From: Vulcanimicrobiota bacterium
GTDB taxonomy: Bacteria; Vulcanimicrobiota; Xenobia; Xenobiales; JADMJV01
Reading direction: 5' to 3'
NCBI GenBank assembly: GCA_050250895.1
Contig: JBFWNU010000005.1
Location: 160,001 to 224,000, forward strand
DNA length: 64,000 nucleotides
Every line of letters begins with the position of its first letter. The first letter of the stretch is position 1. Below the pieces are notes generated by a model, which did not search any database, was not told the origin of the DNA, and saw nothing but the letters and a program-made list of their open reading frames with translations. A program made the position numbers and the translations under genes. This document shows, in pieces, positions 11,647 through 35,749 of the stretch.

Positions 11647-11653
11647 GCCTAAG

Positions 11654-12280: not shown

Positions 12281-12394
12281 TCTGCCAGCATAGCCGAAGG
12301 CGAGTCGATTCTGCGGTGAACTGGCTAACGCGCGTTCGGTGACGGGGATCACCATTAAAGGGACTTACCCTAGCCGGCGCAAAGCTAGCGCGGC

Positions 12395-14713
12395 GTGGAC
12401 ATCGAGGCTATGGCCAGAGAGGTGGGGGGGCCGGTTTACCCGGTCATTCGGCAGCAGCCGGATCCGATGGCCTACCTCCGGCGCCACTACCCGGCGGCCC
12501 CTCGCGAGGATGCGGCCAACGGCTACGAACAGTGGCTCTTCGCCCAGATGTTGGCGGCTCGCCGGCCCCGGTTCACGCATCCGCCCCGGCGGCTGGGGCA
12601 TCGCCTGGTCTTGATTCTCAGCGCTCCTCGCTCGGGGTCGACGTTGCTGCGCAACGCCCTGTCGTTTGCCCCCGAAGTGCGGGCCATTCCCGAGTATGGT
12701 CTGCTGGCCTACGAGTCGAACGACCAGCTGGGCCTGCTTGGGGGACTGGGGATGCCAGTCGAGGACCCTGGTCGACTCTACGGCGGCAGCGTGCTGGAGA
12801 AGTCGACCAGCTACGCCCTCTGGCCGTCCCTGCTAGAGCGTTTAGCCGGCCACTTCGAGCGGCTCGAGTTGGTGCACCTGGTGCGAGACATCAGAGCCGT
12901 GCGCCGCTCTTTTGCCCGGGCCCGGCTGGACCGCGTCTTCTTTGGCGGGCGGCATCCCTTTGCTCCCGAGGTGCTGGGCGAGTTGGTGTGGCAAACGGTG
13001 GAACAGAATCTCAGCGAGTTCGAGCCCGTCCGCTTTGAAGAGCTGGTGGCTCGGCCCGAGCAGAGCTTACGCGAGTTGTGCCGGCGGCTTGGCCTGACCT
13101 TCCAGGAGCAGATGCTGGCCCCCTGGGACGTGCCCAGGGCTGGGCTCGACGACCCTTTTCATGGTGAGCATCGTCACTGGAAAGTGGCTGCTCCCGTGGT
13201 CGAGGCCAGCCGGCGGTTGCCCTGTCTCCACCAACTCGTGCGGGGCCAGGACGAGGCTCCAGCCGTGGCCGTCGGCCCACGGTCTTACACCTACGCCCAT
13301 CTGCGCCAGCGGGTCGAGGAAGTGGCCGGCTTTCTGTCAGGGCGCTGTCGGCCCGGGTCTCGGGTGGGTCTGACCATGGCACCGGGCTTCGAGGGACTGG
13401 CCTGTATGCTTGCCATCATGCGCGTCGGCGCCATCTACGTCCCCCTGCCCCCTCAGCTTCCCCCCGCCCGCCGGGCTCAAGTCGAGCGTCACATCGAGCT
13501 GTTAGTCGACCAGCCGCCGCCGGCCGGACCCGACCCGGGACTCCCCTGGGACGACCCCACCAGCCCAGCCTACGTTCTGTTCACCTCCGGCTCTACTGGG
13601 GTTCCCAAAGGCGTGGTAGTAGCCCATCAGGGAGTAAGCAATGTGGTGCTGCAACAGATCGCCCTGTTTGAAGTCGAGCCTCACAGTCGGGTGCTGCAGG
13701 GGGCGCCCTGGACCTTCGACACTTCCATCGTGCAGATGTTCATGGCTCTGGGAGCAGGGGCCACCCTGGTTTTCCCAGAGCATCCCCTGGAGTTGGCCGA
13801 GGCTGCCCGGGGCGTGACCCATTTGGACCTGGTCCCCTCGCTGCTGGCCACCTTGCCTGATGAGCTCGAGGCACGCGTCATCAGCACCGGAGGCGAGCCA
13901 TGCCCCCGAGGGCTGGTCCAACGACTGGCCACCGGCCGCCGTTTCTTCCATTGCTATGGCCTGACCGAGACTTCCATCTGCTCGACCCTGCGCGAGTGCT
14001 TTGCCGACGAGGCTGACGACCCGCCCATCGGTCGTGCTCTCGAGGGCGTCCATGTCTATCTGCTGGAAGACGGGCAACCGGTCCCTTTCGGAGCCGAAGG
14101 CGAGCTGTACATCGGGGGAGTTGGAGTGGGGCTGGGGTATCTCGATGGCGGCGACCGGTTCCTTCCCGATCCCTTCCGCCCGGGCAAGATGTTTCGCACC
14201 GGAGACCGGGCGCGTTACAACGCTGATGGAGAGCTGGTCTTTCTGGGCCGAGTCGACCGCCAGCTCAAGCTGGGCGGGGTCCGCCTCGAGCCCGGTGAGG
14301 TCGAGAGCCTGTTGCGCACTCATCCCCGGATCGAGCAGGCCACCGCCAAGTGTTTCGAAGGGAGCCTGGTGGTGAGCTACCAGGGTACCCTCGAGCCCGC
14401 TTTGGCCACTGAATATCTGCGCCAGCACCTCCCCTCGGAGGCCATGCCCACTCGCCTCGAGCGGCTCGAGTGCGAGACCGCGGCAGCCACCCCGCGCGGA
14501 CTGGCCGCTCGGGTGGCCGGATTGTGGGCCGGCACGGTGGGGGCCTCGCACTGGCCAACCGCTCGGCGCTTCTGGGAGAGGGGAGGTACTTCCCTCGACT
14601 TGATGCGGTTTCGCGCCCGCCTCGAGCAAGAGTTGGGGGGCTCGGTGGCCATGGCCGACCTGTTTGCCCATCCCACTCCGGCGCAGCTGGCAGCCCACCT
14701 GGAGAAGCGATGA
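12395..14713 (+). CDS. Sulfotransferase-adenylation-PCP NRPS-like starter protein
   Basis: PAPS loop SAPRSGSTLL, LEKS and HLVRD; A-domain YVLFTSGSTGVPKG, YGLTE and FRTGD; PCP GGTSL. Confidence 0.85.
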   Translation: MDIEAMAREVGGPVYPVIRQQPDPMAYLRRHYPAAPREDAANGYEQWLFAQMLAARRPRFTHPPRRLGHRLVLILSAPRSGSTLLRNALSFAPEVRAIPEYGLLAYESNDQLGLLGGLGMPVEDPGRLYGGSVLEKSTSYALWPSLLERLAGHFERLELVHLVRDIRAVRRSFARARLDRVFFGGRHPFAPEVLGELVWQTVEQNLSEFEPVRFEELVARPEQSLRELCRRLGLTFQEQMLAPWDVPRAGLDDPFHGEHRHWKVAAPVVEASRRLPCLHQLVRGQDEAPAVAVGPRSYTYAHLRQRVEEVAGFLSGRCRPGSRVGLTMAPGFEGLACMLAIMRVGAIYVPLPPQLPPARRAQVERHIELLVDQPPPAGPDPGLPWDDPTSPAYVLFTSGSTGVPKGVVVAHQGVSNVVLQQIALFEVEPHSRVLQGAPWTFDTSIVQMFMALGAGATLVFPEHPLELAEAARGVTHLDLVPSLLATLPDELEARVISTGGEPCPRGLVQRLATGRRFFHCYGLTETSICSTLRECFADEADDPPIGRALEGVHVYLLEDGQPVPFGAEGELYIGGVGVGLGYLDGGDRFLPDPFRPGKMFRTGDRARYNADGELVFLGRVDRQLKLGGVRLEPGEVESLLRTHPRIEQATAKCFEGSLVVSYQGTLEPALATEYLRQHLPSEAMPTRLERLECETAAATPRGLAARVAGLWAGTVGASHWPTARRFWERGGTSLDLMRFRARLEQELGGSVAMADLFAHPTPAQLAAHLEKR

Positions 14714-15534
14714 AACGAACCAGGCGCAGTCTCATGTGTTCTCCCGATCACTTCCAGGTGAGCTACTCTATCAACGACTGGATGGATCCGACCCGAGCCG
14801 TCGACCAGGAGCTGGCCCAGAGCCAGTGGCAGTCGCTCAAAACGCGGCTCGAAGAGTTGGGCCAGCAGGTGATGGTGGTCCCGGGCCAGGCCGGCTGGCC
14901 CGACATGGTTTTCGCGGCCGACTGCGGGTTGGCCCTGGGCGGCACCTTTTGGGTCAGCAACTTTCGCCATCCCGAGCGGGCCGGTGAGGCCGACCACTAC
15001 CGGAGGTGGTTCGAGTCCAACGGTCTTCAGGTGAGACAGGTGCCGGCCGGGATCACCTTCGAGGGTCTGGGCGACGTGATCGTGTGCGAGCGCGGTCTGG
15101 TGGTGGGCCTGGGGCCCCGCTCGTGTCCCGAATTGGCGGGCTGGTTACAGGACCAGGGTCTGCCCGTTTTGGCCCGCGTCGAGCTAGCCCAGGAGCGATT
15201 TTATCACACCGCTAATGTCCTGGCTTGTCTGGACGGGTCCACGCTGATCTATTATCCCGACGCCTTCACTGCCGCCAGTCGCCAGGCGCTGTCCTTGGTC
15301 TTCGATCAGTTGGTGGAATGCACTCAGAGCGACGCGGTCGACCACTTCGCTTGCAACTGCATGACGGTCGCCCAGACAGTGCTGATGGGAGAGTGCTCTC
15401 CACCGCTGCGGGCCCAGCTAGCGCGGTTGGGGTGGAGGGTCGAGAGCCTGATTTTATCGGAATTCAAAAAGAGTGGGGCAGGAGTTCGGTGCCTGGTGTT
15501 GGATTTTTGGCAGCATGATCTGCCTGGGGGTTAA
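14710..15534 (+). CDS. Amidinotransferase/dimethylarginine dimethylaminohydrolase (penteine) family protein
   Basis: MCSPDHF..Y.IN.WM, PDMVFAAD, R.GE, FEG.GD, FYH and EF.K.G....CL; ATGA overlap with the upstream gene. Confidence 0.85.
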   Translation: MKRTRRSLMCSPDHFQVSYSINDWMDPTRAVDQELAQSQWQSLKTRLEELGQQVMVVPGQAGWPDMVFAADCGLALGGTFWVSNFRHPERAGEADHYRRWFESNGLQVRQVPAGITFEGLGDVIVCERGLVVGLGPRSCPELAGWLQDQGLPVLARVELAQERFYHTANVLACLDGSTLIYYPDAFTAASRQALSLVFDQLVECTQSDAVDHFACNCMTVAQTVLMGECSPPLRAQLARLGWRVESLILSEFKKSGAGVRCLVLDFWQHDLPGG

Positions 15535-17197
15535 CTCGGTCTACCACGAGTCGTCTGCTTGTATCGTGGTCGACGGTGAGGTGGTAGCGGCCGTTGAAGA
15601 AGAGCGGTTCTGCCGTGTCAAGCACGGCAAGGTGGCTCGTGTCGATAATCCCCAGACCCTCCCTCTGGCTGCCATCGATTACTGTCTGCGGCAAGCCGGA
15701 GTGCGGCCACAGCAGGTCGAGCACATCGGTTACTCTTTCGACCCGGCCCGGCGGGTTGCTCCACCGCCAGAAGAGGTCGAGCCCGAGAGCTGGGGGTCGT
15801 CGATAGGCGAGGACACCTTCCGGCGTGGCCTGAGCGAGGTGCCAAAACTGTTGTCGGCTATAGGTCTGACCGGGTCGCTTCACTGGCTGGGCCATCACCT
15901 TTGCCACGCCGCCTCGGCTTTCTACGCTTCGCCCTTTGAAGAGGCGGCGGTGATGACCGTCGATGGCATCGGCGAGAATGACAGCTCGAGCATGGCGGTG
16001 GGACGAGGAACCGATCTGACCGTGCTCGAGCGGGTGGCCTATCCGCATTCGCTGGGTTTTCTGTGGGAGAAGCTGTCTGGCTTTCTCGGCTTTTCGTGTT
16101 ACGACGCTGGCAAGGTCATGGGGTTGGCTCCCTATGGTCGGGCCGAGCGCTTCGCCGTCGAACTGGCCAGCCTGGTCTGGCCCACTCAGGCGGGAGGCTT
16201 CCAGGTCGACCATCGTCGGCTGAAGTTTCGTAGCTCGGATTTTTCGCCTCTCGAGGAGCTCTTTGGTCTGCCTCGGCGAGGCCCAGAGCAACCCGTCCTG
16301 GAGGCTCATCAGGACCTGGCCGCGTCCCTCCAGGCCGCCACCGACAGAATTGTCCTGCATCGTACTCACGAGCTTTATCACCGAACTTCGCTGTCGTGTC
16401 TGGCCATGGCAGGAGGGGTGGCTCTCAACTGCATCAGCAACCGGGTGGCCTTCGAAGAGGGACCGTTTCAGGAGTTTTTCGTTCAGCCCGCTGCCCACGA
16501 TGCCGGGACGGCCCTGGGGGCTGCCCTCTACCTGGCGGCCCGCACCAGCGGAAAGCGGCCGCTTCCTTTGCTGGATCCCTATCTGGGCCCCCAGTTCTCG
16601 GCTGCCGAGATGGAGGAAATGCTGCGCGCTCAGGGTCTGGTGTTTTCCCGTCCCCGTGACCTGACCGGCGAGGTGGCCCGGCGGCTGGCCCAGGGCAAGC
16701 TGGTGGGCTGGTTTCAGGGTCGCATGGAACTGGGCCCCAGAGCTCTAGGCAACCGCAGCTTGCTGGCCGATCCACGCTGCCCGGCCGTGCGCGAGACGCT
16801 CAATGCTCGCATCAAGAATCGCGAAGCCTTCCGTCCCTTTGCCCCCAGTGTGCTCCAGGAGCGGCTGGGGGAGTGGTTCGAGGTCAAGAAGCCCACCTCA
16901 GCAGCCGAATCCATGCTGGTCTGCTATCCGGTCAAGCCCGAGCGACGCGATCAGATCCCGGCCGTGGTCCATGTCGATGGCAGCAGTCGCGTGCAGGCGG
17001 TGTCGGCTCGCTCCAATCCCCTCTTCCATGAACTGCTACAGAAGTTCGAGGATTTTACGGGCGTGCCCATGCTGCTCAACACCTCGTTCAACGACCGCGA
17101 GCCCATCGTGTGCACGCCGCTCGATGCCTACCTGGCTTACCAGCGAATGGGCCTGGACGCGCTGGCCATGGGGCCCTACCTGGTGGAGGCCCCGTGA
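15515..17197 (+). CDS. Carbamoyltransferase (NodU/CmcH/TobZ family)
   Basis: EEERF.R.KH, HHLCHAAS, DGIGE, GGVALN, ELGPRALGNRS and LLNTSFN. Confidence 0.95.
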   Translation: MICLGVNSVYHESSACIVVDGEVVAAVEEERFCRVKHGKVARVDNPQTLPLAAIDYCLRQAGVRPQQVEHIGYSFDPARRVAPPPEEVEPESWGSSIGEDTFRRGLSEVPKLLSAIGLTGSLHWLGHHLCHAASAFYASPFEEAAVMTVDGIGENDSSSMAVGRGTDLTVLERVAYPHSLGFLWEKLSGFLGFSCYDAGKVMGLAPYGRAERFAVELASLVWPTQAGGFQVDHRRLKFRSSDFSPLEELFGLPRRGPEQPVLEAHQDLAASLQAATDRIVLHRTHELYHRTSLSCLAMAGGVALNCISNRVAFEEGPFQEFFVQPAAHDAGTALGAALYLAARTSGKRPLPLLDPYLGPQFSAAEMEEMLRAQGLVFSRPRDLTGEVARRLAQGKLVGWFQGRMELGPRALGNRSLLADPRCPAVRETLNARIKNREAFRPFAPSVLQERLGEWFEVKKPTSAAESMLVCYPVKPERRDQIPAVVHVDGSSRVQAVSARSNPLFHELLQKFEDFTGVPMLLNTSFNDREPIVCTPLDAYLAYQRMGLDALAMGPYLVEAP

Positions 17198-20100
17198 GCG
17201 AATTGGCCATCACCGGCCTGGCCTTGCGCTTTCCCGGGGCCAACAGCTGCCGGCAGTTCTGGGACCTGCTGCGCCATGGACGTGAGGGCATCTCGCGCTT
17301 TGCCCCGCGGCCCGACCAACCCGACTACGTGCCGGCCCGAGGCGTGCTGGGCGGGCTCGAGCACTTTGAACGGCAGCTCTTCGGGTTGAGCGCCAGCGAG
17401 ACCCGGATCGCCGACCCCCAGCACCTGGTTTTGCTCGAGTGTGTGTGGGAGGCGCTGGCTAACGGGGGCTATCACCCGGCCCGATTTGCCGGCAAGATCG
17501 GCATCTTCGCTGGAGCGGCCAGCAATGGACACCGGAGCGAGCCAGGCACCGACGCCCTGGGCAGTCTCTCGCGTGCCCTGGTCAACGAGGTGGACTTTCT
17601 CACCACCCGCGCCTCCTACCACTTTGGTCTGACCGGACCGAGCGTGGTGGTGCAGAGCGCCTGCGCCACCTCCCTGGTGGCCCTCCATCTGGCCGCCCAG
17701 AGCCTGCGCAATCGGGAGTGCGACCTGGCCCTGGTGGGGGCCGTTTCGATTCGCCTTCCCCAGACGGTCGGCTACCACTATGTCGAAGGAGGGATTCTTT
17801 CTCCCGACGGCCATTGCCGCCCGTTTGACCGCCAGGCCGCCGGCACCGTCAGTAGTAACGGCGCGGCTGTGCTCGTGCTGCGTCGCCTGGAGGAGGCCTG
17901 GCGCGAGCGCGACACCATCCGGGCCATCCTCAAGGCCACGGCCGTCAACCACGACGGCTCCAACAAAATAGGCTATACCGCCCCCAATCCGACTGCCCAG
18001 GTAGAGGTCATGCGCAGCGCCCTGGAGGCGGCCGGGGTCGAGCCCGCCCAGGTGGCTATGCTCGAGGCCCACGGCACAGCCACCCGGTTGGGGGACTCGG
18101 TCGAGGCCTGGGCCCTCGGTCAGGTCTACCAGTCGGGGACTCACTGGCTGGGCTCGGTCAAGAGTAACCTCGGCCACCTCAACACGGCCGCCGGTATGGC
18201 TGGATTGGTCAAAGCCGTCCTGAGCCTCGAGCACGGCCTGGTTCCGCCCACCTTGCACTTCGAGCAAGCCCACCCCGAGTTAGGCCTCGACCCGGCCGTG
18301 TTCACCGTGCCTACCAGTTGTCAGAGCTGGCCCGAAGGGCCGCGAATGGCTGCCGTCAGCTCGATCGGTTTGGGAGGTACCAACGCCCATACCGTGCTGG
18401 CTCAGGCTCCCGAGCGCAAAGCCCTGGAGGCCCTCGAACGGCCTCGTCTATACGTGCTCAGCGCCCGCACCCGGCCGGCCCTTGAGGCCCTCCAGGAGGC
18501 TATCACCTCGACCGGACCAGACGTGTCCTTCACCTTGCGCAACGGACGGGCCGAGCTTGACTGGCGAACTTTCAGCCTCGACACCAGCCAATGGAGCAGC
18601 CGGCGCCGACTCGAGTCGCCGCGTCTTGCCTTTGTCTATCCGGGGGTCGGCGATCACTATCCCGGCATGGGGCGGGAACTCTACCAGCGCGAAGCCGTCT
18701 TTCGCGACTCGCTGGAGGCTAGCCAGGCTTGTCTGGGCGGCGGCCTGCTCGAGCGGCTCTACAGGGGGCAGCCGCTAACCGGCGTCTGGGCTCATCTGGC
18801 CGTGGTGGCTATCGAGGTGGCCCTGACGTCGCTGTTGGCCAGTTGGGGGCTGCGGCCCGAGGCTACCCTCGGGCACTCTCTGGGCGAGTATGTCTCGGCT
18901 TACACTGCCGGCGTCCTCTCGCAGGCCCAACTGCTTCGTCTGGTCCGAGCCCGGGCCGAGGCGGTCGAAAAGCTCGAGCCCAGCGCCCAGCTGGTGGTTC
19001 CCCTTGGGGCCGCTCAGCTCTCGCTGGGGCCTGGGCTTCACGCCTGTCTGGAGAACGGACCGCACCTGACGGTGGCGGCCGGGTCTTGTCAGGCGGTTGT
19101 CGAGCTGCAAGAGCGCCTCAAAGCCGAAGGCGTGCCGAGCCAGACCGTGCTCGATGGCCGAGCCTACCACTGTCCCCTGGTCGAGCCAGCCCGCGCGACC
19201 CTCGAGGCGGTCCTGGCCGAGCTCGAATTCAACCCCGGCCAGGTGCCCTGGCTGAGCAACCTCGATGGCCAATGGAAGGATCGGGCCGGACCTGACCATT
19301 GGCTCGAGCACCTGGTGCGGCCGGCCCGCTTTTCTCAGGCCCTGGCTCGTCTGGCCGCCGAGCCAGACTGGGTGGTACTCGAGGTCGGACCCGGCACCAG
19401 CCTGCAAAGCTTGGCTCGCCAGGCCGGGCTCCCGCGCGTGGCCAGCTGTTTGGGCACGGCTCTCGAGACTGCCCGGGACGACCATCGCCGCACCCTGGCG
19501 GCGGTGGCAGAAGCCTGGACCTGGGGAGTCGATTGTGACCTGGCGGGCCTGGACCCTGATGGCGGCCGTGTGCCCCTGGCGCCCTATCCCTTCGGCTTGA
19601 AGGACGAAACAGGACAGCTGCCGTCAACGGCTCCTATGGATGCCCTCGAGCAGGTCTGGTGCGGGGTGCTGGGCCTCGAGCGCGTGGGTGACGAGGACGA
19701 CTTCTTCCGGCTGGGCGGCAATTCTTTGTTAGCACTGCAGCTGATTCATCGCCTCCAGGTCGACTTCGGACTAGGTCTCAAACTGCAGCAGTTCTTGCAG
19801 AATCCGACCCTGGCCGCCCAACGTGCTCTTCGCCTGGAGCAGGTGGACAGCCACCGCCAATTGATAGTGGGCGAGCCCGACCAGATTCACCAGCCCTTCG
19901 AGTTGACTGATGTGCAGGAGGCCTACTGGGTGGGCCGCCGCTCAGAATTCGGGGCCGAGGTCTCGACCCATGGCTACGCCGAGATCGACAGCTCCATCGA
20001 AGTCTCGGTGATGGAAAGGGCCTGGAACCGGCTCATCGCTCATCACCCCATGTTGCGAGCGGTGGCCAGCGCCGACGGCCGGCAGCGGGTGCTCAAGTCG

Positions 20101-25689: not shown

Positions 25690-25913
25690 AGCTTGGCCCT
25701 CACCAGGCCAATCAGCGCTTGAAAGCTTTGAAAGTTGGCTCGCTGGAGATCGTCGGGCCCCAGTTGAATGGAGAATTCTTTCTCGAGAAACATGACCAAC
25801 TGCAAAGCGAATAGACTGGTCAGATAACCCGACCCGAAAAGGTCTGCTTCGGTCAGGGCTCGCTCGGGCACGTGACGCAACAGATATTCGCGCACGCGTT
25901 GCTCAATTCTCAT
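25686..25913 (-). CDS. Acyl carrier protein (FkbJ-like)
   Basis: DLF..G.LTSLFALQLVMFLEKEF.I.....DL...NF.S. Confidence 0.9.
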   Translation of the reverse strand: MRIEQRVREYLLRHVPERALTEADLFGSGYLTSLFALQLVMFLEKEFSIQLGPDDLQRANFQSFQALIGLVRAKL

Positions 25914-26757
25914 ATTCGAAGAAGCCCTTTCCACTCTTGCGGCCGAGTCGCCCCGCAGCCACCATCGCTCGCAGCCGCGGGGCCGGCTCGAAACGTTGGG
26001 GATCGACCCGTTCGGCCAGGATCTCGAGGGTGTTGAGCACGGTGTCCAGGCCGATCAGATCGGCCGTAGCCAGGGGTCCTTCAGCGTGACCGAAGCAGCC
26101 GCGAAAGAGCCTGTCGATTCCGTCGGCTTCGGCCCTTCCCTCGTCGAGCACCCGGATTGCTTCATTGAGGGTCAGCATCAGGACCCGGTTGGAGACAAAG
26201 CCCGCGCCGTCCTTCACACTCACCCACTGCTTGCCCAGGCTCTCGAGAAAGTCGTGAGCTTGCGACAAGGTAGCCGGACTGGTGGAGGGCGCCTCGATCA
26301 GCTCGACCCAACCGTTGAGATGGACCGGATTCATGAAATGGATGCCGACCAGTCGCTCGGGCCTGGCCAGCAGTGAGCCAAGCTCGGCAATGGGAAGCGC
26401 CGAGGTGTTGGCGGCCAACATAGCCTGGGGACAGAAGCGGTCGAAAAGAGGATAGAGTTCAGCTTTGAGTGCCCAGTCTTCGGTGATATTCTCGACCACT
26501 ACCGAACATTCCGAGAGCAGCTCGAGTGAGGTCGCAGACTGAACCCTCCCCAGGATTCGAGAGGCATCCTGGCTATCGTCGAGCCCGAAGAATCGCCGAA
26601 ATCGCAGTTGTCGGGCCATGCCGGCCAGGCTGCCCTCGAGCTGGCTGGCCCGGTCATCCACCAGCCTGACCTGATGACCTCGCAGGCAGGCGCACAGAGC
26701 GACCCCGCTACCGATCACGCCGGCTCCCACCACACCAACACACAACACCACCGTCAA
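25903..26757 (-). CDS. 3-hydroxyacyl-CoA/ACP dehydrogenase (FkbK-like)
   Basis: GVVGAGVIG, ENITE....K, NTS, HFMNP and GFVSNR; start may be GTG 26751. Confidence 0.9.
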   Translation of the reverse strand: MTVVLCVGVVGAGVIGSGVALCACLRGHQVRLVDDRASQLEGSLAGMARQLRFRRFFGLDDSQDASRILGRVQSATSLELLSECSVVVENITEDWALKAELYPLFDRFCPQAMLAANTSALPIAELGSLLARPERLVGIHFMNPVHLNGWVELIEAPSTSPATLSQAHDFLESLGKQWVSVKDGAGFVSNRVLMLTLNEAIRVLDEGRAEADGIDRLFRGCFGHAEGPLATADLIGLDTVLNTLEILAERVDPQRFEPAPRLRAMVAAGRLGRKSGKGFFEYEN

Positions 26758-26829
26758 GCCTACGCCCAGCGCCGGGCAACTCCTTTTTCCCCGAAAGGAC
26801 TTCGGGGTCCAAGCAGAGTAACGGCCAGA

Positions 26830-29800
26830 ATGCGGGGCCTAGGGGAACTAACACCGGAACAGCGCCAACTCTTTGATCGGCTGTTGGCCCAAACCAACGA
26901 CCATCGCCTGCGCCCGCGCCCGTCGGGCGAAACGCCGCTCTCCTACGCTCAAGAACGCATTTACTTTCTGGAACAACTCGGCCCTCAGAGCACGGCCTAC
27001 ACGGTGGCCTGGGGCTTTGACGTGGTGGGGCCCCTCGACTGCGGGTGTCTCAAAGAGGCCTTCCGGCGGTTGCGCGACCGCCACGAGATCTTGCGGGCCC
27101 GCTGTGTAAAAACCTCGACCGGTGCCCGTCTCGAGTTCGAGCCACCCGGGCCGGTCGAGGTTCTCGAGTTGGACCTGCGAGGTCTGGCCCGAGACGAGGT
27201 AACCACCCGAGCCACCGAGTTGATTCGCGCCCCCTTTGAGCTCACCGCCGGCAGCTTGTCCCGGCTCAGCTTGATCCGGGTCGGCCCAGACGAGCACGTG
27301 CTGCTCTTGCACTCCCACCACCTGATCGTGGATAGCTGGTCGGCCAAGGTGATTTTGCGCGAACTGGGTTCGGTTTATGCCGCCCTGGTCCAGGCCCGCG
27401 AGCCGGCTCTAGAGCCTCTCCCCTTGAGTTATAGCGACTTTGCCTTCTGGCAGCGTCAGCGCCAGCAGAACTGGGCCCAGGAGATCGCCTATTGGAAAGA
27501 GGCTCTGGCCGGGGCACCCACATGCCTGACTCTACCGACCGATCATTCTCGCCCTGCCTTTCGCAGTTATCGCGGTCAGAAGCACCACTTTCGGGTGGAC
27601 TCGGCCCTGGCCGACCAGTTGGCCGAGTCGGCCCGGCAAGGCGGGGTGACGCTCTTTAGCCTGCTACTGGCCTTGTTTGGCGCTTATCTTGGCCGCTTGA
27701 GCGGTCAGTCCGAGGTGGTGATAGGGGCAGCTCTCTCGGATCGCTTTCCGGCCGAGACCGAAGCGATGGTGGGGTCGTTCGCCCACTTGCTCCCCTTGCT
27801 GTGTGGCTGTGGGCCCGACGAGACTTTAGCCGACCTATTGCCTCGAGTTCGCCAGACGGTGGCCGGAGCGTTAGCCCACAAAGAGGTGCCTTTCGAGCGT
27901 CTGGTCGATGAGTTGGCCCCGCCTCGCAATCTCGACCACGATCCCATTTTTCAGGTCATGTTCGTGCTTCACGAGGACCCCCTGGAAGAAGAGCTGCACC
28001 TGCTCGGCTGTCAGGTCCGGCGACGGGTACTGGAAAAGGGTGGCTCGCGTTTTGACCTGATGCTCGAGATGGTGGACGGTGAGAACGAGCTATTCGGATG
28101 GTTCGAGTATAGTCTGGACCTTTTCGAGCCGGCCACCATCGCCGCCATGACCGAGCAGTTCTGGTTGCTGGTCGCGGGGGCCCTGGCCGCGCCTGAGGCC
28201 CCTCTGGCCGACCTGCCCCTGGTGCCCCCTTCCCAGCCCGAGCCATCGCTTGGGCCCGCTCTCGCGATCGATCCCGAAGTGCGGGTGGAAAGCTTGATTG
28301 CGAGCCAGGCCGCACTTCGACCTGAGCAGCTGGCGGTAGACCAGCTGACCTATGCCCAACTCGCCGAGCAGGTCCAAGTCAGGGCCGCCAGCCTCTTGAG
28401 CCAGGGTCTGGCGGCCGGACAACTGGTGAGCCTCAGCTCCTACAAAAATTCCCAGCTGCTGGTGAGTATGCTGGCGGTGTGGAGGTGCCAGGCTTCGTTC
28501 TTGCCGCTCGGTCCCGACTGGCCCGCTCGCCGGCGGCAGGCGGTGGTGGCGGCCTCGGGCTGTCACTGGCAGTGGGAACAGGAGGTCTGGCGGGCTGGCC
28601 CGGGTGGGTCCCCTTTCGACTCCAGCCGGGCTTATGCCATGGCGACCTCGGGCTCGAGCGGCCTGCCTAAGGTGGTGGCGGTCAGCCATCGGTCGCTGGC
28701 AAACCTCTTGCTGTCGATGGCCGATGAACCCGGTTTTGGGCCCGACGATAGCCTCCTGAGCGTGACCACTCCCACTTTCGACATCGCCTTGCTAGAGTTC
28801 TTCTTGCCCCTGGTGGCCGGCGGTTCGGTCCAGTTATTACCTGACGAGATCCGAGGGGGTTGTGGTTTGCGGCAGGCTCTCGAGCGAGGCCAGCCCAGCG
28901 TGGTGCAAGCTACGCCAACCATGTGGCGGATGCTGCTCGAAACCGGTTGGCGGCCCACGAACGGGCTAAAGATCTTGTGCGGCGGCGAGGGCCTCTCGCG
29001 CCAGCTGGCCGGGCAGCTGCTAGGGGCCGACTCACTTTGGAACCTCTATGGTCCCACCGAAACCACCGTCTGGTCGACTCTGCACAGGGTCCAGAGCGCC
29101 GACCGGGAGCCACCCATCGGGCGGCCCATCGCAAACACCCGCATCGAGATCCGAGATGATCGAGGACGGCCCGTTCCGCGAGGAGTGGTCGGCGAGATCT
29201 GCATTAGCGGTCTGGGGGTGGCTCAAGCCTATCTCGGTGGCGATGAGCTCGCTCGCGAAGGGTTCTATCATACTGGTGACCTGGGCTGCTGGGATCGCCA
29301 CGGACAGCTCCACTTCGCAGGACGCCGCGACCAACAGGTCAAGGTCAGGGGCGTGCGCATCGAGTTGGCCGAAGTCGAGCATGCGCTACTCGGTCACCCG
29401 GGCATCAGCAGCGCCGCGGTGGTTGCCCGCCAGGATGAACTGGTGGCCTTTCTGGTTGGCGACCCGGCTCCGGCCAACGTCCTTCAGGCCTATCTGCGAG
29501 GCCGCCTGCCCGAGGCCTTCGTGCCCTCGACCTTCCACTTTCTCGAAAAGTTTCCGACCACCGCCAATGGCAAGCTCGACCGGCGGGCGCTCGACGCCAC
29601 CGGCGGCCCACCCGCTCCGGCCGGCAGCACCTATCGGGCTCCCCAGACCCCCACCGAGGCCCGGGTGGTGGAACTCTACGAGGCGACCTTGCAGCGGCAG
29701 CCGGTGGGCTGCGAACATGACTTCTTCGCCCTGGGAGGACACTCGTTGCTGGCCATTTCGCTGGCCAGTCGTCTTGAGACGGCATTCGAGCTGACTTTCC

Positions 29801-29928
29801 CTCTGCGCAAGGTCTTCGAGCTGGGCACGCCAGCACGCGTTGCCGGCTGGCTCGAACAGCAGATTCTGCTCGAGATCGAAGCGATGAGCGAAGAAGAAGC
29901 CAGCCATCTGGCCTTCGGTCATGGATAG
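26830..29928 (+). CDS. NRPS module C-A(Gly-like)-PCP
   Basis: LSYAQER; HHLIVD; A TSGSSG.PK, FDIALLE, VQATP and NLYGPTETTVWS; PCP GGHSL. Confidence 0.92.
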   Translation: MRGLGELTPEQRQLFDRLLAQTNDHRLRPRPSGETPLSYAQERIYFLEQLGPQSTAYTVAWGFDVVGPLDCGCLKEAFRRLRDRHEILRARCVKTSTGARLEFEPPGPVEVLELDLRGLARDEVTTRATELIRAPFELTAGSLSRLSLIRVGPDEHVLLLHSHHLIVDSWSAKVILRELGSVYAALVQAREPALEPLPLSYSDFAFWQRQRQQNWAQEIAYWKEALAGAPTCLTLPTDHSRPAFRSYRGQKHHFRVDSALADQLAESARQGGVTLFSLLLALFGAYLGRLSGQSEVVIGAALSDRFPAETEAMVGSFAHLLPLLCGCGPDETLADLLPRVRQTVAGALAHKEVPFERLVDELAPPRNLDHDPIFQVMFVLHEDPLEEELHLLGCQVRRRVLEKGGSRFDLMLEMVDGENELFGWFEYSLDLFEPATIAAMTEQFWLLVAGALAAPEAPLADLPLVPPSQPEPSLGPALAIDPEVRVESLIASQAALRPEQLAVDQLTYAQLAEQVQVRAASLLSQGLAAGQLVSLSSYKNSQLLVSMLAVWRCQASFLPLGPDWPARRRQAVVAASGCHWQWEQEVWRAGPGGSPFDSSRAYAMATSGSSGLPKVVAVSHRSLANLLLSMADEPGFGPDDSLLSVTTPTFDIALLEFFLPLVAGGSVQLLPDEIRGGCGLRQALERGQPSVVQATPTMWRMLLETGWRPTNGLKILCGGEGLSRQLAGQLLGADSLWNLYGPTETTVWSTLHRVQSADREPPIGRPIANTRIEIRDDRGRPVPRGVVGEICISGLGVAQAYLGGDELAREGFYHTGDLGCWDRHGQLHFAGRRDQQVKVRGVRIELAEVEHALLGHPGISSAAVVARQDELVAFLVGDPAPANVLQAYLRGRLPEAFVPSTFHFLEKFPTTANGKLDRRALDATGGPPAPAGSTYRAPQTPTEARVVELYEATLQRQPVGCEHDFFALGGHSLLAISLASRLETAFELTFPLRKVFELGTPARVAGWLEQQILLEIEAMSEEEASHLAFGHG

Positions 29929-32900
29929 CCAGCTGTCGCCGGCCAAGCGAGCGCTGCTAGCCCGCCGACTACAAGGTCGCTCCCAGCGCTCACCAGACGG
30001 CCTGACCGCGAGCCCGCTGGCCTCGCGGGGCATGGAGAGGCTGTGGTTCTTGCACCGGCTCGAACAGCAGGCGCCGATCTATAACATCTATTGTCACTAC
30101 CGGATTCGCGGTCAGCTTGAGATAGAACGCCTCAGCCGTGCCTGGAGCGAACTGGTCGAACGCCATGCGGCCCTGCGAACTCGGCTGGTGGAAGCGGGCG
30201 ACCAGCTCTTGCGCCAACCATGTCCAGCGCCCCGACTGGCTCTGATGGACCAGCCCCAAGACCTGGCCCAGGCGCTGCGGGCCTTGCGGCGCGAGCCGTT
30301 TGACCCGGCCACCGGACCCCTGGCCCGAGCGGCGCTGACGCCGGTGGGTCCCGACCATCATGTGCTGACCATGGTGCTCCACCATATCATCTGTGACGGC
30401 TGGTCGTTGCGGCTGCTCGAGCGCGAACTGGGGGCTCTGTATTCGGGCCAAATCCTGCCGCCGCTAGAGGCCGACTATGGTCACTTCGTGGCCTGGCAGG
30501 CAAGCCATGACGAAGGGCGGGAGCTTGCCTACTGGCACGAGCGCCTGGCCTGTCCGACGCGCTGCGAGGTGCCCACCGACCTGGGCCGCCCGGCCCGCTC
30601 GGACTACGCTTGCAGGCAGCTACGCCGACCGGTAGCGGCCCCGGCTTTGCGCCAACTCGCCCAGGGCTACCGGACCACCATCTTCACGCTCATCCTGGCC
30701 GCCTTCAAGGCCACCCTGTGTGCCTGGGTGGGAAGCAGCGATATCCTGGTGGGAACGCCCATGGCCGGTCGCTTGCAGCCCGCTTTCGAGAGCCTGGTGG
30801 GCTTTTTCGTCAACACCCTGGTGTTGCGGACCTGCCTGGACGGCGATCCCACCTTCGCAGAGGTGATTGAGCGGGTGGGTGAGACGGTCTTGCAGGCCCA
30901 CGAGCATCAGCGGCTGCCCTTCGAGCGGTTGGTACGCGAAATAAAGCCTGACCGCGACAGCGGCCGCAACCCGCTCTTTTCGGTGATGTTCGTGGGCGAA
31001 GACGGCCCTCGTCAGGTTGTGCCCCTGGTCGGGCTCGAGGTCGAGCCGCTCGAACTCGAGCGAGAGGCCCTGCCTTATGACCTCGAAGCCCGTTTCACCG
31101 ACCTGGGGGAGCAGCTGGTGCTAGCCATCGACTACGATCCAGCCCTCTATGCCGAAACGACCGTCAAAGACTTGCTCGAGCATTTTGCCCAGGTTCTCGA
31201 ACGCCTCGGGACTGCCTCCGAACTCCCCCTATCTCGATGGGGCGCCCTGCCATCGGCCTATCTCGAGAGTTTGAACGAGCGCCTGTCGGGGCCGGTGGTG
31301 GCTCACCCCGGCGGGTGTCTCCACCACCGTTTCGAGCAGCAGGCGCGGTCCACGCCCGAAGCGGTCGCCGTGGTCGACGAGGGCCGCCAGTATAGCTATC
31401 AAGAACTCAACCAGGCGGCCAACCGGCTGGCCCATCGCTTATTGCGCCAGGGCGCCGGCCCGGGGCGGGTGGTGGCCCTGCCCCAGCCCCGTGGCTACTC
31501 GGCCCTGGTGAGCATTCTAGGCATTCTCAAGACTGGCGCGGCCTATCTCCCCCTCGACCCGCAACTGCCGGAGGCCGTGGTGGCCGACCGCCTGGCCGAC
31601 AGCCAGGCCCTGGTGCTTGAGCTAGAGGCTTTCGATGGCCCCGTCAACGACCCGCCTCCGGCCGGCCGGGCCCAAGACATTCTCTGCATTCTCTATACTT
31701 CGGCCTCGAGCGGCCCGGCCAAGCGGATAGCCTGCCCTCACCGGGGGGCCGTCCATCGTCTGGATTGGGGCAGCCGTGAGTTGCCGCTCGCTCCCGACGA
31801 GGTGGTCGGTCAACGCGCCAGCCTGGGCTTTGTGGACTCGATTGCCGAGCTCTTTTCGCCGCTTTTGAGTGGGGCTCGGCTGGTGTTTTTGCCCGAACTC
31901 GACTCTTTGTCGCGGTGGACCGCCCAGCTTCGCCGTCAGCGAGTAACCCGCTTGCTGGTGGTGCCCAGCCTGCTGGCTACTCTGCTTGAGTCAAGCCTCG
32001 ATCTCCCCGCTCTCAAACTGGTGGTATCCAGCGGCGAGGCCCTCCCGTCGAGTCTGGCCAGGCTCTTCGCTCGCCGACTTCCCCAGGCCCGGCTGGTCAA
32101 TCTCTACGGCTCGACCGAGGTGGCCGGAGACATCACCTGGTCTCACGACTCGAGCCTGGGCCGGCCCATCGACAATCATCGCTGTCGCATCGTCGACGAG
32201 CACGGCCGTTCGGTGGCCCGCGGGGCGGTGGGCGAGTTGCTGGTGAGTGGACCGGGCCTGGCCGCCGGTCTTGGTCCCGAGTTTGCAACCGGAGATCTGG
32301 TAAGGCTGGAACGAAACGGCCGGCTGGACTACATCGGTCGCAAGGACTCTCAGGTGAAGATTCGCGGCATTCGGGTGGGTCTGGCCCAGGTCGAGCAGTT
32401 GCTGGCCCGGCATCCGGCCGTTCGCAGTTGCGCTGTGGTCGAGCAGGCTCAGACTCTGCACGCTTTCTGGACGGGGCATCAGGCCGCCGACCTGCAGGTC
32501 TATGTCGAGACCCATCTCGAGCGGGCCCTGCGGCCGCGCTTGCATCACTGCGAACAACTGCCGCTGACGACCAACGGCAAGATCGACAGGTCAGCCCTGG
32601 TTGTGCGGCCTGGACCCGCGCGGCCAGCCGGCTCGTTCGAGCAGAAGGTGGTCAGGGTCTGGTCGCGGGTGCTGGGTTTCGAGGTCGCTCCGGAGGCAAA
32701 CTTCTTCGAGCTGGGCGGCCACTCGCTGCTGGGTGTGCGCCTGATGGCTGCTCTGGAACGTCTGGTCGGGCATCCTTTGAGCGTGGGCCTGCTGTTCGAA
32801 GCTCAGACCGCCCGGTCCATGGCTCGAGTCTTGCAGCAAGAGGGCCGTACGGGCGAACTGGTGGTCATGAAGCCGGGCGCCGGGCCGCCCTTGATTCTCA

Positions 32901-33568
32901 TCCCCCCGGCCGGCTGCACGCTGGTCCGGTATGCTCAGTTGCTCGAGCACTATGACGGTCCCGTTCTGGGCTTTGAATACCCGCCAACTCCGGTCGCCTA
33001 TACCCGATTGGTGACCCGCTGGGCCGACGAGTTGGCGGCCCTGTTGGGCGATGGACCCTATGTGGTGGGTGGAGCGTGCCTTGGGGGGCGCTACGCCTTC
33101 GAGCTTGGCCGGCGGTTGCGCGCACTGGCCCTACCCGTGGCCCTGGTGGTGGTCATCGACACTGGCCCGAGCCACCCTCTCGCGCCTCGCAAGGACGCTG
33201 CCTACTGGCGAAGCTGGCTGGTCAGCCACGCCTTGTCGCCGCGCCGTTTCAAGAAGTGGTTCCGAAATCATCTCAAGCGTGCCAACCGCTATCTCTTCCA
33301 ACCGGCTAAGGTCAGGTTCGAGCGCCTGATGATAGAGCATCTGGCCTCGATGAACGGCTATCGCCCTCAAAAACTGGACGCCCCCGTCTTGCTGCTCGAG
33401 TCCGAGGAGAAAAGGCTTGAGTCGCGAGAGGCAACCTGGTGGCAAGACTTGCAACCGGATCTGGAGGTGACGGGTCTGCCGGGAAGCACTCACATGGGCT
33501 TGCTCGACCAGACGCGCCAGGCCGAGTGGGTGGCCCGCACCATCCGCCGTCGGGTCGAAGAACTATGA
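29921..33568 (+). CDS. Terminal NRPS module C-A(beta-Ala-like)-PCP-TE
   Basis: HHIICDG; A YTSASSG..K, FVDS, VSSGE and NLYGSTEVAGD; PCP GGHSL; TE GACLGG..VIDT..THMGL. Confidence 0.9.
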   Translation: MDSQLSPAKRALLARRLQGRSQRSPDGLTASPLASRGMERLWFLHRLEQQAPIYNIYCHYRIRGQLEIERLSRAWSELVERHAALRTRLVEAGDQLLRQPCPAPRLALMDQPQDLAQALRALRREPFDPATGPLARAALTPVGPDHHVLTMVLHHIICDGWSLRLLERELGALYSGQILPPLEADYGHFVAWQASHDEGRELAYWHERLACPTRCEVPTDLGRPARSDYACRQLRRPVAAPALRQLAQGYRTTIFTLILAAFKATLCAWVGSSDILVGTPMAGRLQPAFESLVGFFVNTLVLRTCLDGDPTFAEVIERVGETVLQAHEHQRLPFERLVREIKPDRDSGRNPLFSVMFVGEDGPRQVVPLVGLEVEPLELEREALPYDLEARFTDLGEQLVLAIDYDPALYAETTVKDLLEHFAQVLERLGTASELPLSRWGALPSAYLESLNERLSGPVVAHPGGCLHHRFEQQARSTPEAVAVVDEGRQYSYQELNQAANRLAHRLLRQGAGPGRVVALPQPRGYSALVSILGILKTGAAYLPLDPQLPEAVVADRLADSQALVLELEAFDGPVNDPPPAGRAQDILCILYTSASSGPAKRIACPHRGAVHRLDWGSRELPLAPDEVVGQRASLGFVDSIAELFSPLLSGARLVFLPELDSLSRWTAQLRRQRVTRLLVVPSLLATLLESSLDLPALKLVVSSGEALPSSLARLFARRLPQARLVNLYGSTEVAGDITWSHDSSLGRPIDNHRCRIVDEHGRSVARGAVGELLVSGPGLAAGLGPEFATGDLVRLERNGRLDYIGRKDSQVKIRGIRVGLAQVEQLLARHPAVRSCAVVEQAQTLHAFWTGHQAADLQVYVETHLERALRPRLHHCEQLPLTTNGKIDRSALVVRPGPARPAGSFEQKVVRVWSRVLGFEVAPEANFFELGGHSLLGVRLMAALERLVGHPLSVGLLFEAQTARSMARVLQQEGRTGELVVMKPGAGPPLILIPPAGCTLVRYAQLLEHYDGPVLGFEYPPTPVAYTRLVTRWADELAALLGDGPYVVGGACLGGRYAFELGRRLRALALPVALVVVIDTGPSHPLAPRKDAAYWRSWLVSHALSPRRFKKWFRNHLKRANRYLFQPAKVRFERLMIEHLASMNGYRPQKLDAPVLLLESEEKRLESREATWWQDLQPDLEVTGLPGSTHMGLLDQTRQAEWVARTIRRRVEEL

Positions 33569-35242
33569 CTCGCCTGCTGCACTTTTTGGGCCGGGTTCGG
33601 GCTTCTCAGGGTCGGCTGCTGTTCTGGTCTACCCTCAATAGCCTGGCTCTGGCCCTTTCCGGCGGCGGAGGATTGCTGTTGTTGGTGCCCTTGCTTCACC
33701 TGGTGGGCGCCGAAAAGACGCCCTCGCCGGCCAATCAGGCCATCTCGAATTGGCTCCACGGCCTCGGCATCGGGCTCAACCTGACCAGTGTGTTGCTCGC
33801 CTTCGTGGCCCTCCAGTTGTTGGCCGCCTGGTTAGAACGGGTGCGCCGACTGCAGCACATCGATCTCTCTTTGCGCTTCGCCTTCGAGTGTCAGCAAGAG
33901 CTGCATCGAGCGCTGGCCCAGACCAGTTGGTTGCAGTTCGCCAAGTTGCAGCGCGCCAACTTGCTGCAAACCTGCACCGAAGAGATCCGGCGCATCTCGG
34001 CGGCCGCCTACTCGATTCAGTGGGCTATTGCCGAGGCAGCTTTGCTTTGCGCCTATTTCCTGACGGCGCTCGTGGTGGCCCCGGTCTTCTCGCTGGCGGC
34101 GGCCAGCGTCGGCCTGGCCTGCCTGTGGGTGATTCGGCGCACCACCGGACGGGCGCTCTTTCTTGGCGATCGCCTGACTCAGAACTGGCAGGAGATGTTC
34201 GCGGCCACCGGCGACTTCCTCGATTCTGCCCAACTGGCCCGCTGCTACCAGACGACCGACAGCCACGCCTCGATGTATCTGGCTCGAGCGACCGAACTCT
34301 ACCAGACCCGCCGCGAACTCGAAGTCAACTCTACCCGCGCAGCCACGCTGTTCACCGGCCTGGTGGTGGTGGCTCTGGCCATCCTCTGCTATGTGGCCAT
34401 CGGCTGGGCGGGCATACCTGCCTCGTCGCTGATCGTGCTGATCTTCGTCTTCAACCGCATGGCCAGCCGCCTGGGCGGACTCGAGCAGGTAGCTCAACGT
34501 CTGCTCAACGACCTGCCAGCCCTGGAGCGCGTCAGGCAGACCATCACGGCCTGCCAGGCCTCGCACCAACTCGAGGACACTGACGAGGTCGCTCCGGTGC
34601 TCGCCAGCGAGCTTGTTTTCGAACAAGTCCGCTTTGCCTATCCCGGCGAGAAGTTCGAACTGCGCGTAGACCAGGCGATCCCGGCTCGAAAGCTCACGGT
34701 TTTGTCAGGACCGAGCGGGGTTGGCAAAAGCACCGCCCTCAGCCTGGTCCTCGGCCTGATTCGTCCCGATTCGGGTCGGTTACTGGTCGACGGCCAACCC
34801 CTGCAGCCTGGGCCCAATTGGCGCCGCACCATCGGCTACCTGCCTCAGCATCCCTTTCTCTTTCACCAAAGCATTCGGGCCAATCTGCATTGGGGCGCTT
34901 CCGAGGCGACCGAAGAGGATCTCTGGTCGGCCCTCGAGCAGGCTGAAGCCCGAGACTTCGTAGAGGCTTTTGCCCAGGGCCTGGATACGGTCGTGGGCGA
35001 GCGCGGTGACCGCCTTTCGGGCGGTCAGCGCCAGCGCCTGGCCCTGGCCCGCGCCTTGCTCCGACAGCCCCAGCTCTTGCTCTTGGATGAACCTACCTCG
35101 GGCCTCGACGAGGCCAACGAAGTGGCCATTTTCCAGACCCTGAAAGCGCTCTCTTCACGTTTGACGGTGCTGGTTGTCAGCCACCGCACCTCGGCTCAGG
35201 GCCCTGGCTGACCGGGTGGTCGACCTGGGCGGGACTGCCTGA
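33565..35242 (+). CDS. ABC exporter (fused permease/ATPase); probable frameshift near 35200
   Basis: TM domain; GPSGVGKS, LSGGQRQR, LLLLDE and SHR. The natural end ALADRVVDLGGTA* lies in the shifted frame; the ORF as read stops at 35211. Confidence 0.85.
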
Positions 35243-35294
35243 GTTGCGGCTTGGCTGGTGCCTGGTGAAAGTCTGTCGGTCGCGCCTCAAAAGA

Positions 35295-35320
35295 AAAAGG
35301 CTACCCACAGGTAGCCTTTT
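35295..35320. terminator. Bidirectional Rho-independent terminator
   Basis: AAAAGGCTACC-CACA-GGTAGCCTTTT between convergent genes. Confidence 0.85.
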
Positions 35321-35348
35321 GCGACTGTCAGCGAGACGTCGATAGAAT

Positions 35349-35603
35349 TTAGCGACGGGTCTTTTTGGCGCGAGCCTCGTTGACCACGAGGCGGCGACCG
35401 CCGAATTCTTTGTCGTTCATTCCTTCGATAGCCTTGTTACCGGCTGTCTTGTCGCCCATCTCGACGAAGCCGAAGCCGCGAGCCTGACCGGTGTCGCGAT
35501 CCTTGACCACGTTGACGGACGTGACGGAGCCGAATTCCTCGAAAGCGCGAAGAAGCTCATCCTCGGTGACTTCGAAAGAGAGATTTCCAACATAAAGATT
35601 CAT
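35349..35603 (-). CDS. RRM (RNP-1) RNA-binding protein
   Basis: MNLYVGNL (RNP2) and RGFGFVEM (RNP1); GGAGG RBS. Confidence 0.95.
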   Translation of the reverse strand: MNLYVGNLSFEVTEDELLRAFEEFGSVTSVNVVKDRDTGQARGFGFVEMGDKTAGNKAIEGMNDKEFGGRRLVVNEARAKKTRR

Positions 35604-35749
35604 AATAATCCTCCAAGAGAAAGTGTGCAAAAGGGACGGAACGATCTGGCCACGTGAACGGAATGGAGAGCCAAATCAAGCGAAGGATCTCATCGTTGTC
35701 ACCTGCTGGAGACGGTGGTTCGACGGGTTTTACCCGCAGTTGCCGGGTC

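Follow-up and report, generated by a model that had tools for sequence, protein, structure and literature searches.

What would an assembly line make whose first protein carries a sulfotransferase (ST) ahead of its adenylation (A) domain, with an enzyme of the guanidino-modifying penteine fold encoded next to it? The question is raised by a 64,000-nucleotide stretch of the genome of a Vulcanimicrobiota bacterium (GenBank assembly GCA_050250895.1, contig JBFWNU010000005.1, positions 160,001 to 224,000; hereafter the window), in which Pfam and NCBIfam searches, together with inspection of the open reading frames, delimit a cluster of 11 genes in about 23 kb (12395–35242 of the window). We tentatively propose that arginine is loaded, sulfated, and guanidine-processed on the first peptidyl carrier protein (PCP) domain, that hydroxymalonate, a thiazole, glycine, and β-alanine are then added, that the glycolyl hydroxyl is carbamoylated, and that the chain is released by a cysteine thioesterase (TE) and exported. 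The backbone taken alone, starter-CO-CH(OH)-thiazole-4-carbonyl-Gly-β-Ala, is probably correct as predicted from the domains and their specificity codes.

The cluster combines modules of a nonribosomal peptide synthetase (NRPS) with those of a polyketide synthase (PKS), the domains of which are condensation (C), cyclization (Cy), oxidase (Ox), ketosynthase (KS), acyltransferase (AT), and acyl carrier protein (ACP) domains in addition to those named above. Every element of the original prediction for this region was recovered in its place by domain and NCBIfam searches, as follows, with the region that holds the cluster given last.

12395..14713, plus strand: ST-A-PCP starter enzyme (Pfam Sulfotransfer_3, AMP-binding, PP-binding); start GTG at 12395 or ATG at 12410
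14447..14593, plus strand: junction from A9 Pro680 to PCP Ser728 within the starter enzyme, A10 Lys absent
14710..15534, plus strand: penteine (guanidino-modifying) enzyme, ArgZ fold
15515..17197, plus strand: carbamoyltransferase, CmcH/NodU/TobZ type
17194..23670, plus strand: hybrid protein, KS-AT-ACP-Cy-A(Cys)-PCP-Ox
23630..24658, minus strand: FkbH glyceryl transferase, TIGR01686 above cut-off
24655..25689, minus strand: FkbI-like acyl-ACP dehydrogenase (acyl-CoA-dehydrogenase-like)
25686..25934, minus strand: FkbJ-like stand-alone ACP; start at 25913 or 25934
25903..26757, minus strand: FkbK-like 3-hydroxyacyl dehydrogenase; start uncertain
26830..29928, plus strand: C-A(Gly)-PCP
29921..33568, plus strand: C-A(β-amino acid, VD code)-PCP-TE
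33565..35242, plus strand: ABC exporter; frame stops at 35211
3138..35869: variable region holding the cluster, whose flanking genes are adjacent in a genome of the same genus (G001)

With C/Cy-A-PCP and KS-AT-ACP modules in which the motifs are intact, and with a release domain, the cluster has the make-up of a hybrid NRPS/type I PKS system, the exception being motif A10 of the starter. Co-directional neighbors overlap by 4–20 nt, a pattern as in translationally coupled operons, and the minus-strand Fkb block and the Gly-module gene diverge across 72 bp. No promoter consensus was found in 26600–26950, and a search of the cluster returned no Rfam match and no meaningful repeats. The enzymes of 12395–33568 are noticeably compact; homologs from other groups have longer loops and linkers.

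The starter unit

Two sets of orthologs guide the reading of the starter. P0002 (ST-A-PCP, 64%) and P0019 (the hybrid protein, 67% by BLASTP) are both listed with a 31,655-bp contig, and P0145 (ST-A-PCP-penteine, 42%) and P0294 (the terminal module, 37%) are both listed with a 1,021,396-bp contig, the linkage in each pair being taken only from the equal size of the listed contigs. The window ST is 69% identical to that of P0002. In the PDB it matches best the PKS sulfotransferases of CurM and of the OLS type (E 2e-16 and 6e-16), with which its binding motif for 3′-phosphoadenosine-5′-phosphosulfate (PAPS) and its Arg/Glu/Lys motifs align; SAPRSGSTLLR, Glu, and EKS are all kept. By these motifs the starter ST is of the CurM/OLS carrier-acting type, placed N-terminal to A-PCP, whereas in CurM and the OLS proteins it lies after the carrier and before the TE. 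In the AlphaFold model of the ST-A-PCP protein, the ST falls below pLDDT 50, and its Foldseek ranking was not used for specificity.

The pocket code of the starter A domain (A1), read like the other A codes from 236 aligned cores by anchoring on motifs, is DTVDSGCIC, and all nine positions are identical in the window protein, P0002, and P0145. Motifs A3, A5, A7, and A8 are present, and the carrier serine is Ser728 (residue numbers are counted from the ATG at 12410). A1 has Asp235, Asp278, Gly301, and Ile330; Arg-activating A domains cluster on Asp235, Asp278, Gly301, and Ile/Val330 (PMC12283262). The pocket, together with the penteine fusion described below, leads us to favor, by a modest degree, a basic amino acid as the substrate of A1, most likely L-Arg.

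The penteine enzyme has no Pfam match at E ≤ 0.001; its NCBIfam matches, to dimethylargininase/arginine dihydrolase, reach E 6e-65 and 4e-57, and both score under the curated cut-offs. Its closest PDB sequence is ArgZ (E 7e-51, 37% identity), onto which its predicted fold superposes with Z 38.5 and an rmsd (root-mean-square deviation) of 1.7 over 264 aligned residues. The fold and the Cys-His-Glu triad are the same as those of ArgZ/AgrE and of the dimethylarginine dimethylaminohydrolases (DDAHs), and the triad, Cys261-His166-Glu118, is intact. Two further positions differ from ArgZ: Asp71 stands where ArgZ has Asn71, and Ala168 stands where ArgZ has the Asp of HLD, two residues past the His (His+2). 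Asn71 of ArgZ is reportedly what decides its dihydrolase activity, and we take Asp71 of the window enzyme to map to the second guanidinium Asp of DDAHs and arginine deiminases (ADIs). In ADIs the His+2 Asp holds the guanidinium; in DDAHs it gives way to another residue so that a substituted guanidine fits (PMC11659421). By these residues the window enzyme is ArgZ-like with a DDAH-like Asp71/Ala168 pattern. Such a pair is uncommon: among 150 penteine matches, 103 could be parsed at the first site, of which 65 carry the N/D pair of ArgZ and four carry D/A, including the window protein and P0145. The four family-level homologs in other genomes retain Asn71.

In P0145 the ST-A-PCP and penteine parts form one protein of 1088 residues with an intact A10 Lys, and its penteine part is the best non-self match to the window enzyme among 1.84 billion representatives. 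The fusion of the penteine to the PCP points to carrier-bound arginine chemistry, although channelling would likewise account for it. Alternatively, on the same assembly line, the penteine could hydrolyze free Arg to ornithine for loading by A1, with the sulfate and carbamoyl groups placed on amines of the ornithine or on the hydroxyl of the glycolyl unit, possibly combined as an N-sulfocarbamate of the kind present in some saxitoxins, in which N-21 is the carbamoyl nitrogen. The closest structures, being the ArgZ/AgrE dihydrolases, speak for such a supply role, as do Lon22, the arginine dihydrolase reported to generate ornithine in the cyclic-peptide pathway to the longicatenamides (PMC12305651), and the sulfation of saxitoxin at N-21 (PMC2885083). 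However, the residues corresponding to Asn71 and to the His+2 Asp of ArgZ are both altered, in a combination seen in only four of the parsed homologs, homologs elsewhere in the family keep Asn71, and the PCP fusion of P0145 suggests a tethered substrate. We regard this supply role as unlikely.

Chain extension, release, and proposed product

The hybrid protein would continue from the starter. In its KS the active Cys lies in VQSACATS with NEVD upstream, which we take to be the pattern of KSs fed by an NRPS module, although a literature search gave no paper on this motif, and the Cys/His/His residues are kept; its AT has GHSLG and an unusual GRAYH, presumably distinct from both the malonyl and the methylmalonyl AT motifs; a ketoreductase (KR) domain is absent. 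FkbH, FkbI, FkbJ, and FkbK families are all present, and neither an O-methyltransferase nor a seryl ligase was recognized in the cluster. Sets of FkbH, FkbI, FkbJ, and FkbK without a methyltransferase lead to hydroxymalonyl-ACP, and the inventory here therefore suggests that extender. The hybrid A code, DLFNISGIW, is Cys-like, with the D-L-x-N...I-W pattern of Cys codes, and the Ox domain implies a thiazole, where the original prediction had left the choice between thiazole and thiazoline. The A code of the second NRPS protein, DILQLGLVW, is of the Gly type, a single residue away from the Gly code DILQLGMIWK; near-identical fragments of this module occur on two other NCBI contigs. The last A domain has the code VDALVSLGD, the initial VD of which we take to be a β-amino-acid signature. 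Both the gene set for hydroxymalonyl supply and the three codes agree with the backbone that had been predicted earlier; the Cys thioesterase and the changed penteine residues are additions to that prediction, as is the fusion found in P0145. Two other proteins, P0064 and P0092, have the architecture KS-AT-ACP-Cy-A-PCP-Ox at 41–45% identity, with several signature motifs in common with the hybrid and different AT motifs; they and the hybrid are possibly part of a wider family.

The TE has a Cys nucleophile (Cys1053, in GACLGG, at about 33077), with Asp1080 in position I, His1191, and, by residue count, a cationic lid of 16 K/R against 4 D/E; the corresponding criterion for SulM-type TEs is the presence of positive residues at two of three positions. 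The same combination occurs in both orthologs, that of the window and P0294, while a Cys nucleophile occurs in only five of 58 other parsed TEs, one of which is the ortholog. The closest PDB match is AB3403. A Cys-nucleophile TE and a sulfotransferase in one cluster are also features of sulfazecin synthesis (SulM/SulN), and the co-occurrence of a Cys TE, a cationic lid, and an ST would allow a monobactam-like outcome, in which the ST would N-sulfonate the last residue and the TE would close a β-lactam. The ST sits in the first protein, however, and the TE, with Ala-Cys-Leu in place of Gln-Cys-Asn, carries its Asp in position I, where AB3403 also has it, and not in position II. A SulM-type monobactam pathway was rejected, since the TE lacks the published features of SulM TEs (PMC11298585) and the last A domain has VDALVSLGD, not a code for 2,3-diaminopropionic acid (Dap); the Dap code of SulA3 has Asp at positions 1, 8, and 9 (PMC12042044), and the last residue here is predicted to be β-Ala. 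We consider any monobactam-like product extremely improbable.

The carbamoyltransferase is full length, with both its N- and C-terminal domains (NovN-type, E 9e-93; TobZ, E 9e-91). An ABC exporter closes the cluster, and the end that had been given for it, 35242, proved wrong: the ABC frame stops at 35211, and 35242 is the stop of another frame. The identical 548-aa exporter product is recorded from both NCBI and Logan, which argues against a single-assembly error, although this is not a check of the reads.

Taken in order, the proposed pathway would begin with the loading by A1 of a basic amino acid, most likely L-Arg, onto the first PCP (PCP1), where the in-cis ST, with PAPS, would sulfate the tethered residue; the acceptor is possibly a nitrogen, giving an N-cap, a detail we hold more loosely than the pathway as a whole. 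Cys261 of the penteine would then attack the guanidine carbon, the reaction likely stopping at a ureido (citrulline-type) group. FkbH, FkbK, and FkbI would furnish hydroxymalonyl-FkbJ, and the AT and KS would add this unit without reduction to give an α-hydroxy-β-keto unit, the extension chemistry following by analogy with the family. The Cy-A-PCP-Ox module would add Cys and form the thiazole; Gly and then β-Ala would be joined to the chain; and the Cys thioesterase would free it by hydrolysis or ring closure. The carbamoyltransferase would likely cap the glycolyl hydroxyl, the sole hydroxyl predicted by the assembly line, and the ABC exporter is predicted to export the small peptide.

Starter anomalies, supply, and genomic setting

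A number of observations weigh against this pathway. At the starter, the catalytic lysine of the A10 motif PxxxxGK is missing both in the window A1 and in P0002; this lysine is required for adenylate formation (PMC10510592), and CysK-A3 of cystobactamid synthesis, a natural A domain that likewise has no A10 Lys, is experimentally inactive and is bypassed in trans (PMC7966384). Compared with P0002, the window A1 is only 43% identical in its small subdomain against 75% in its A3–A8 core, whereas for the Cys module the figures are 78% in the small subdomain and 70% in the core. A1 has no Glu239, which is typical of Arg domains (PMC12283262); its code matches other fetched A domains at no more than four of nine positions, and it is absent from one supplement of codes (PMC12283262). 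In the ST, the His of the CurM PELH motif is replaced by Gly, and an internal deletion makes the middle shorter than in CurM and P0145. The penteine fold is nearer to the dihydrolase ArgZ than to DDAH (Z 29.7, rmsd 2.3). The exporter frame ends just past the H-loop, a normal tail of the nucleotide-binding domain (NBD) lying in the other frame to 35242; PanD, a source of β-Ala, was not found in the genome; and no hybrid ortholog from the 1,021,396-bp contig, which would be the middle of the third copy, is among the 120 matches listed.

The A10 anomaly bears on two further explanations. A Lys stands 16 residues past the A9 Pro in 356 of 400 parsed junctions; at this place there is an Arg in the window (Arg696) and in P0002, which also retains the A10 Pro, and a Lys in P0145. 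The PCP Ser follows this position by 32 residues; in P0145 the spacing is 42, and the median is 56 (n=376). The Arg in the A10 register could instead be the usual Pro-Arg at the start of the PCP, with the A10 loop deleted. A1 thus combines a conserved core with a catalytic loop that has not been kept.

The cluster could be decaying or silent in the window lineage, with a starter A domain unable to adenylate and a truncated exporter, while the P0145 lineage keeps a working pathway. The original prediction had named pseudogenes as evidence that would tell against it, and such evidence was found in part: the A10 Lys is changed to Arg with a linker 24 residues under the median, and the exporter tail is frameshifted, but the ten other genes show no internal stop or frame shift. 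Decay would also suit the diverging small subdomain of A1, the recording of the exporter frameshift in products from two assemblies, and the precedent of CysK-A3 (PMC7966384). Yet P0002, at 64% identity, is in the same state, with its A core 75% and its ST 69% identical and its code kept at all nine positions, unlike a long-dead domain, and an Arg lies exactly at the A10 register in both proteins, with the A10 Pro still in place in P0002. We judge decay to be distinctly unlikely.

Sulfoglycerate starters occur in some cyanopeptolins, and A1 might similarly have ceased to be the loader here; PCP1 could instead receive its acyl group in trans, glycerate supplied by FkbH being one candidate, and sulfation by the ST would then give a sulfoglycerate starter. 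The loss of the A10 Lys, the presence of FkbH, the action of CurM-type STs on carrier-bound hydroxyacyl groups, and the cystobactamid precedent, in which CysK-T3 is loaded by CysH/CysB (PMC7966384), are all compatible with this. However, neither such a shuttle pair nor a stand-alone A-T gene was recognized in the cluster, FkbH is already explained by the FkbI/J/K set, and an amino-acid pocket with Asp235 is conserved at nine of nine positions, identical to that of the Lys-bearing ortholog; moreover, the penteine would be left without an explanation. Loading in trans is very unlikely on this evidence, and loading of Arg by A1 itself remains the reading we prefer.

The earlier description of the cluster as self-contained was not borne out, as genes for a phosphopantetheinyl transferase (PPTase) and for PAPS and β-alanine supply were not recognized in it. 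One PPTase-family gene and an adenosine 5′-phosphosulfate (APS) kinase are on other contigs of the genome. MbtH was not found in the genome, which has four genes of the pyridoxal phosphate (PLP)-decarboxylase family that might be a source of β-Ala. A second carbamoyltransferase (37%) is encoded at G000:C1:2355658-2357421, and another A-domain gene is at C1:16420-17421.

A window protein encoded beside the cluster has a cluster-mate at 90% identity that bears the name Candidatus Eremiobacteraeota bacterium, which places the uncultured host in Ca. Eremiobacterota. The host genome is 9.5 Mb and 99.6% complete, and the one Cy and two C domains of the cluster are the only C/Cy domains found in it by tblastn. 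The composition of the cluster is mildly atypical, with a GC content of 65.2% against 62.9 ± 1.2%, and 25 of 405 segments have a larger tetranucleotide distance. In G001, the homolog of the gene at 2448–3137 of the window abuts a biotin-carboxylase gene (here at 35870), and about 32.7 kb is missing at the site. Upstream of the cluster, the variable region (3138–12394) encodes a WGR-domain protein, a TerB-like protein, a GH18 glycosidase, an (S)-ureidoglycine aminohydrolase, and an ankyrin protein, with no apparent tie to the pathway. Downstream, a small protein with an RRM-type RNA-binding look by eye (35349–35630, minus strand) lies between the exporter and an operon of biotin carboxylase, acyl-CoA dehydrogenase, carboxyl transferase, and β-keto-acid cleavage enzyme (35870–41297, minus strand). 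By its gene families this operon is one of ordinary catabolism and marks the right boundary; the biotin carboxylase was matched in 14 of 15 other genomes of the family. At 42181–46917 (plus strand), a 661-aa protein without a Pfam match precedes a 905-aa CHAT-domain protein.

Beyond the orthologs described above, no ortholog of the ST-A pair was found: not in 40 relatives, where 11 of 41 genomes matched and non-self matches begin at residue 265 or later; not in 400 genomes of the phylum, where there were four weak non-self ST matches in 386–439-aa frames; not in 43 other genomes of the class, searched with a three-row profile; and not in a GTDB scan with the ST-A alignment, which returned nothing. 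Scans with a PCP-Ox alignment gave 148 loci (80 kept of 177 genome loci and 68 metagenome loci), of which none had matches to at least two of nine accessory queries. Four regions inspected after plasmid searches were unrelated, and no match to the cluster turned up in E. coli genomes by blastn, a comparison at the nucleotide level.

Parts of the gene set do recur in other combinations. FkbJ-FkbI-FkbH cassettes, with FkbH at 43–47%, occur in four genomes that belong to the same order but a different family (L173–L176, in G037, G033, G035, and G038), which suggests other hydroxy- or methoxymalonyl pathways. On an AT-rich metagenome contig (L109, 7124–11902), a Cy-A-PCP-Ox region is directly followed by a carbamoyltransferase (37%). 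An unannotated cluster on a Kitasatospora plasmid (L187, 9316–49000) has an ArgZ-type N/D penteine, NRPS and PKS modules, and a Cy-A-Ox module; it has no ST, carbamoyltransferase, or Fkb match and is not orthologous. In Streptomyces and Kitasatospora plasmid clusters (L186 and L188, about 9400–25200), a Cy-A-PCP-Ox module is preceded by an FkbH domain and, in L186, followed by phosphotransferase and urease genes.

Relation to known systems and significance

Several known systems share part of this gene set. Zwittermicin-type biosynthesis uses the same four families, FkbH/I/J/K, the role of which is hydroxymalonyl-ACP supply; the window cluster differs in having no KR and no aminomalonyl branch and in feeding a thiazole module. 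In the clb cluster for colibactin there are an N-acyl-Asn starter C domain, a peptidase, and an amidase, and the order in the NRPS module of ClbK is Cy-A-PCP-Ox. Like the hybrid, ClbK has KS-AT-ACP without KR, uses a malonyl extender that bears a heteroatom, and passes the chain to an NRPS module that forms a thiazole (bioRxiv 10.1101/530204). The AT* of ClbK is an inactive relic, however, and its extender is aminomalonyl, whereas the AT motifs of the hybrid are intact and its predicted extender is FkbH-based hydroxymalonyl; the prodrug starter, peptidase, and amidase were not recognized here. A clb-type pathway was rejected on the presence of FkbH, the intact AT GHSLG, and the lack of an N-acyl-Asn starter C domain, a peptidase, or an amidase among the 11 genes. 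The saxitoxin and cylindrospermopsin pathways also unite a guanidino-enzyme, a carbamoyltransferase, and a sulfotransferase (SxtG/SxtI/SxtN; CyrA/CyrB/CyrJ) (PMC2885083). The window penteine, in contrast, resembles SxtG only at Z 24.8 and 14% identity and is far closer to ArgZ, an SxtA-type aminotransferase is absent, and the predicted backbone is a thiazole peptide.

The cluster might nonetheless be a diverged copy of a characterized pathway, given that MIBiG and antiSMASH comparisons lay outside the search and that subscription papers were mostly unsearchable. Against this, the named matches are generic modules, which for the hybrid and the terminal protein do not exceed about 45% identity, and the plasmid regions inspected were unrelated; we hold a known pathway to be highly improbable. 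The earlier statement that no known pathway has this combination agrees with the open-literature searches, in which no pathway with the same gene combination turned up, the scope leaving aside MIBiG and most subscription journals. Within the open literature searched, no starter module was described with a PKS-type sulfotransferase before A-PCP and a penteine after it.

Every enzyme family of the cluster is known; judged by domain order, the apparent novelty is the ST before A-PCP with the penteine behind it. The product is likely an undescribed sulfated, carbamoylated thiazole peptide. In the predicted product a ketone sits next to the thiazole-bearing carbon, which recalls the unit that ClbK builds for colibactin, and by this analogy the likeliest role of the product, speculatively, would be that of an electrophilic enzyme inhibitor in competition or defense. 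More doubtful, though of wider consequence, is the idea that ST-A-PCP-penteine constitutes a new NRPS initiation unit that sulfates carrier-bound Arg and rewrites its guanidine before polyketide extension, two of its three versions working with Arg for the A10 Lys and almost no A-PCP linker, and that it would lead to a hitherto unknown class of sulfated ketol-thiazole inhibitors. For such questions the system offers convenient material. The size of the cluster, 23 kb, suits heterologous expression, and P0145 provides a single 1088-residue protein for the direct study of on-carrier sulfation and guanidine chemistry. The Lys-bearing and Arg-bearing orthologs, with their identical pockets, provide a natural means of testing whether an A domain can dispense with its A10 lysine.

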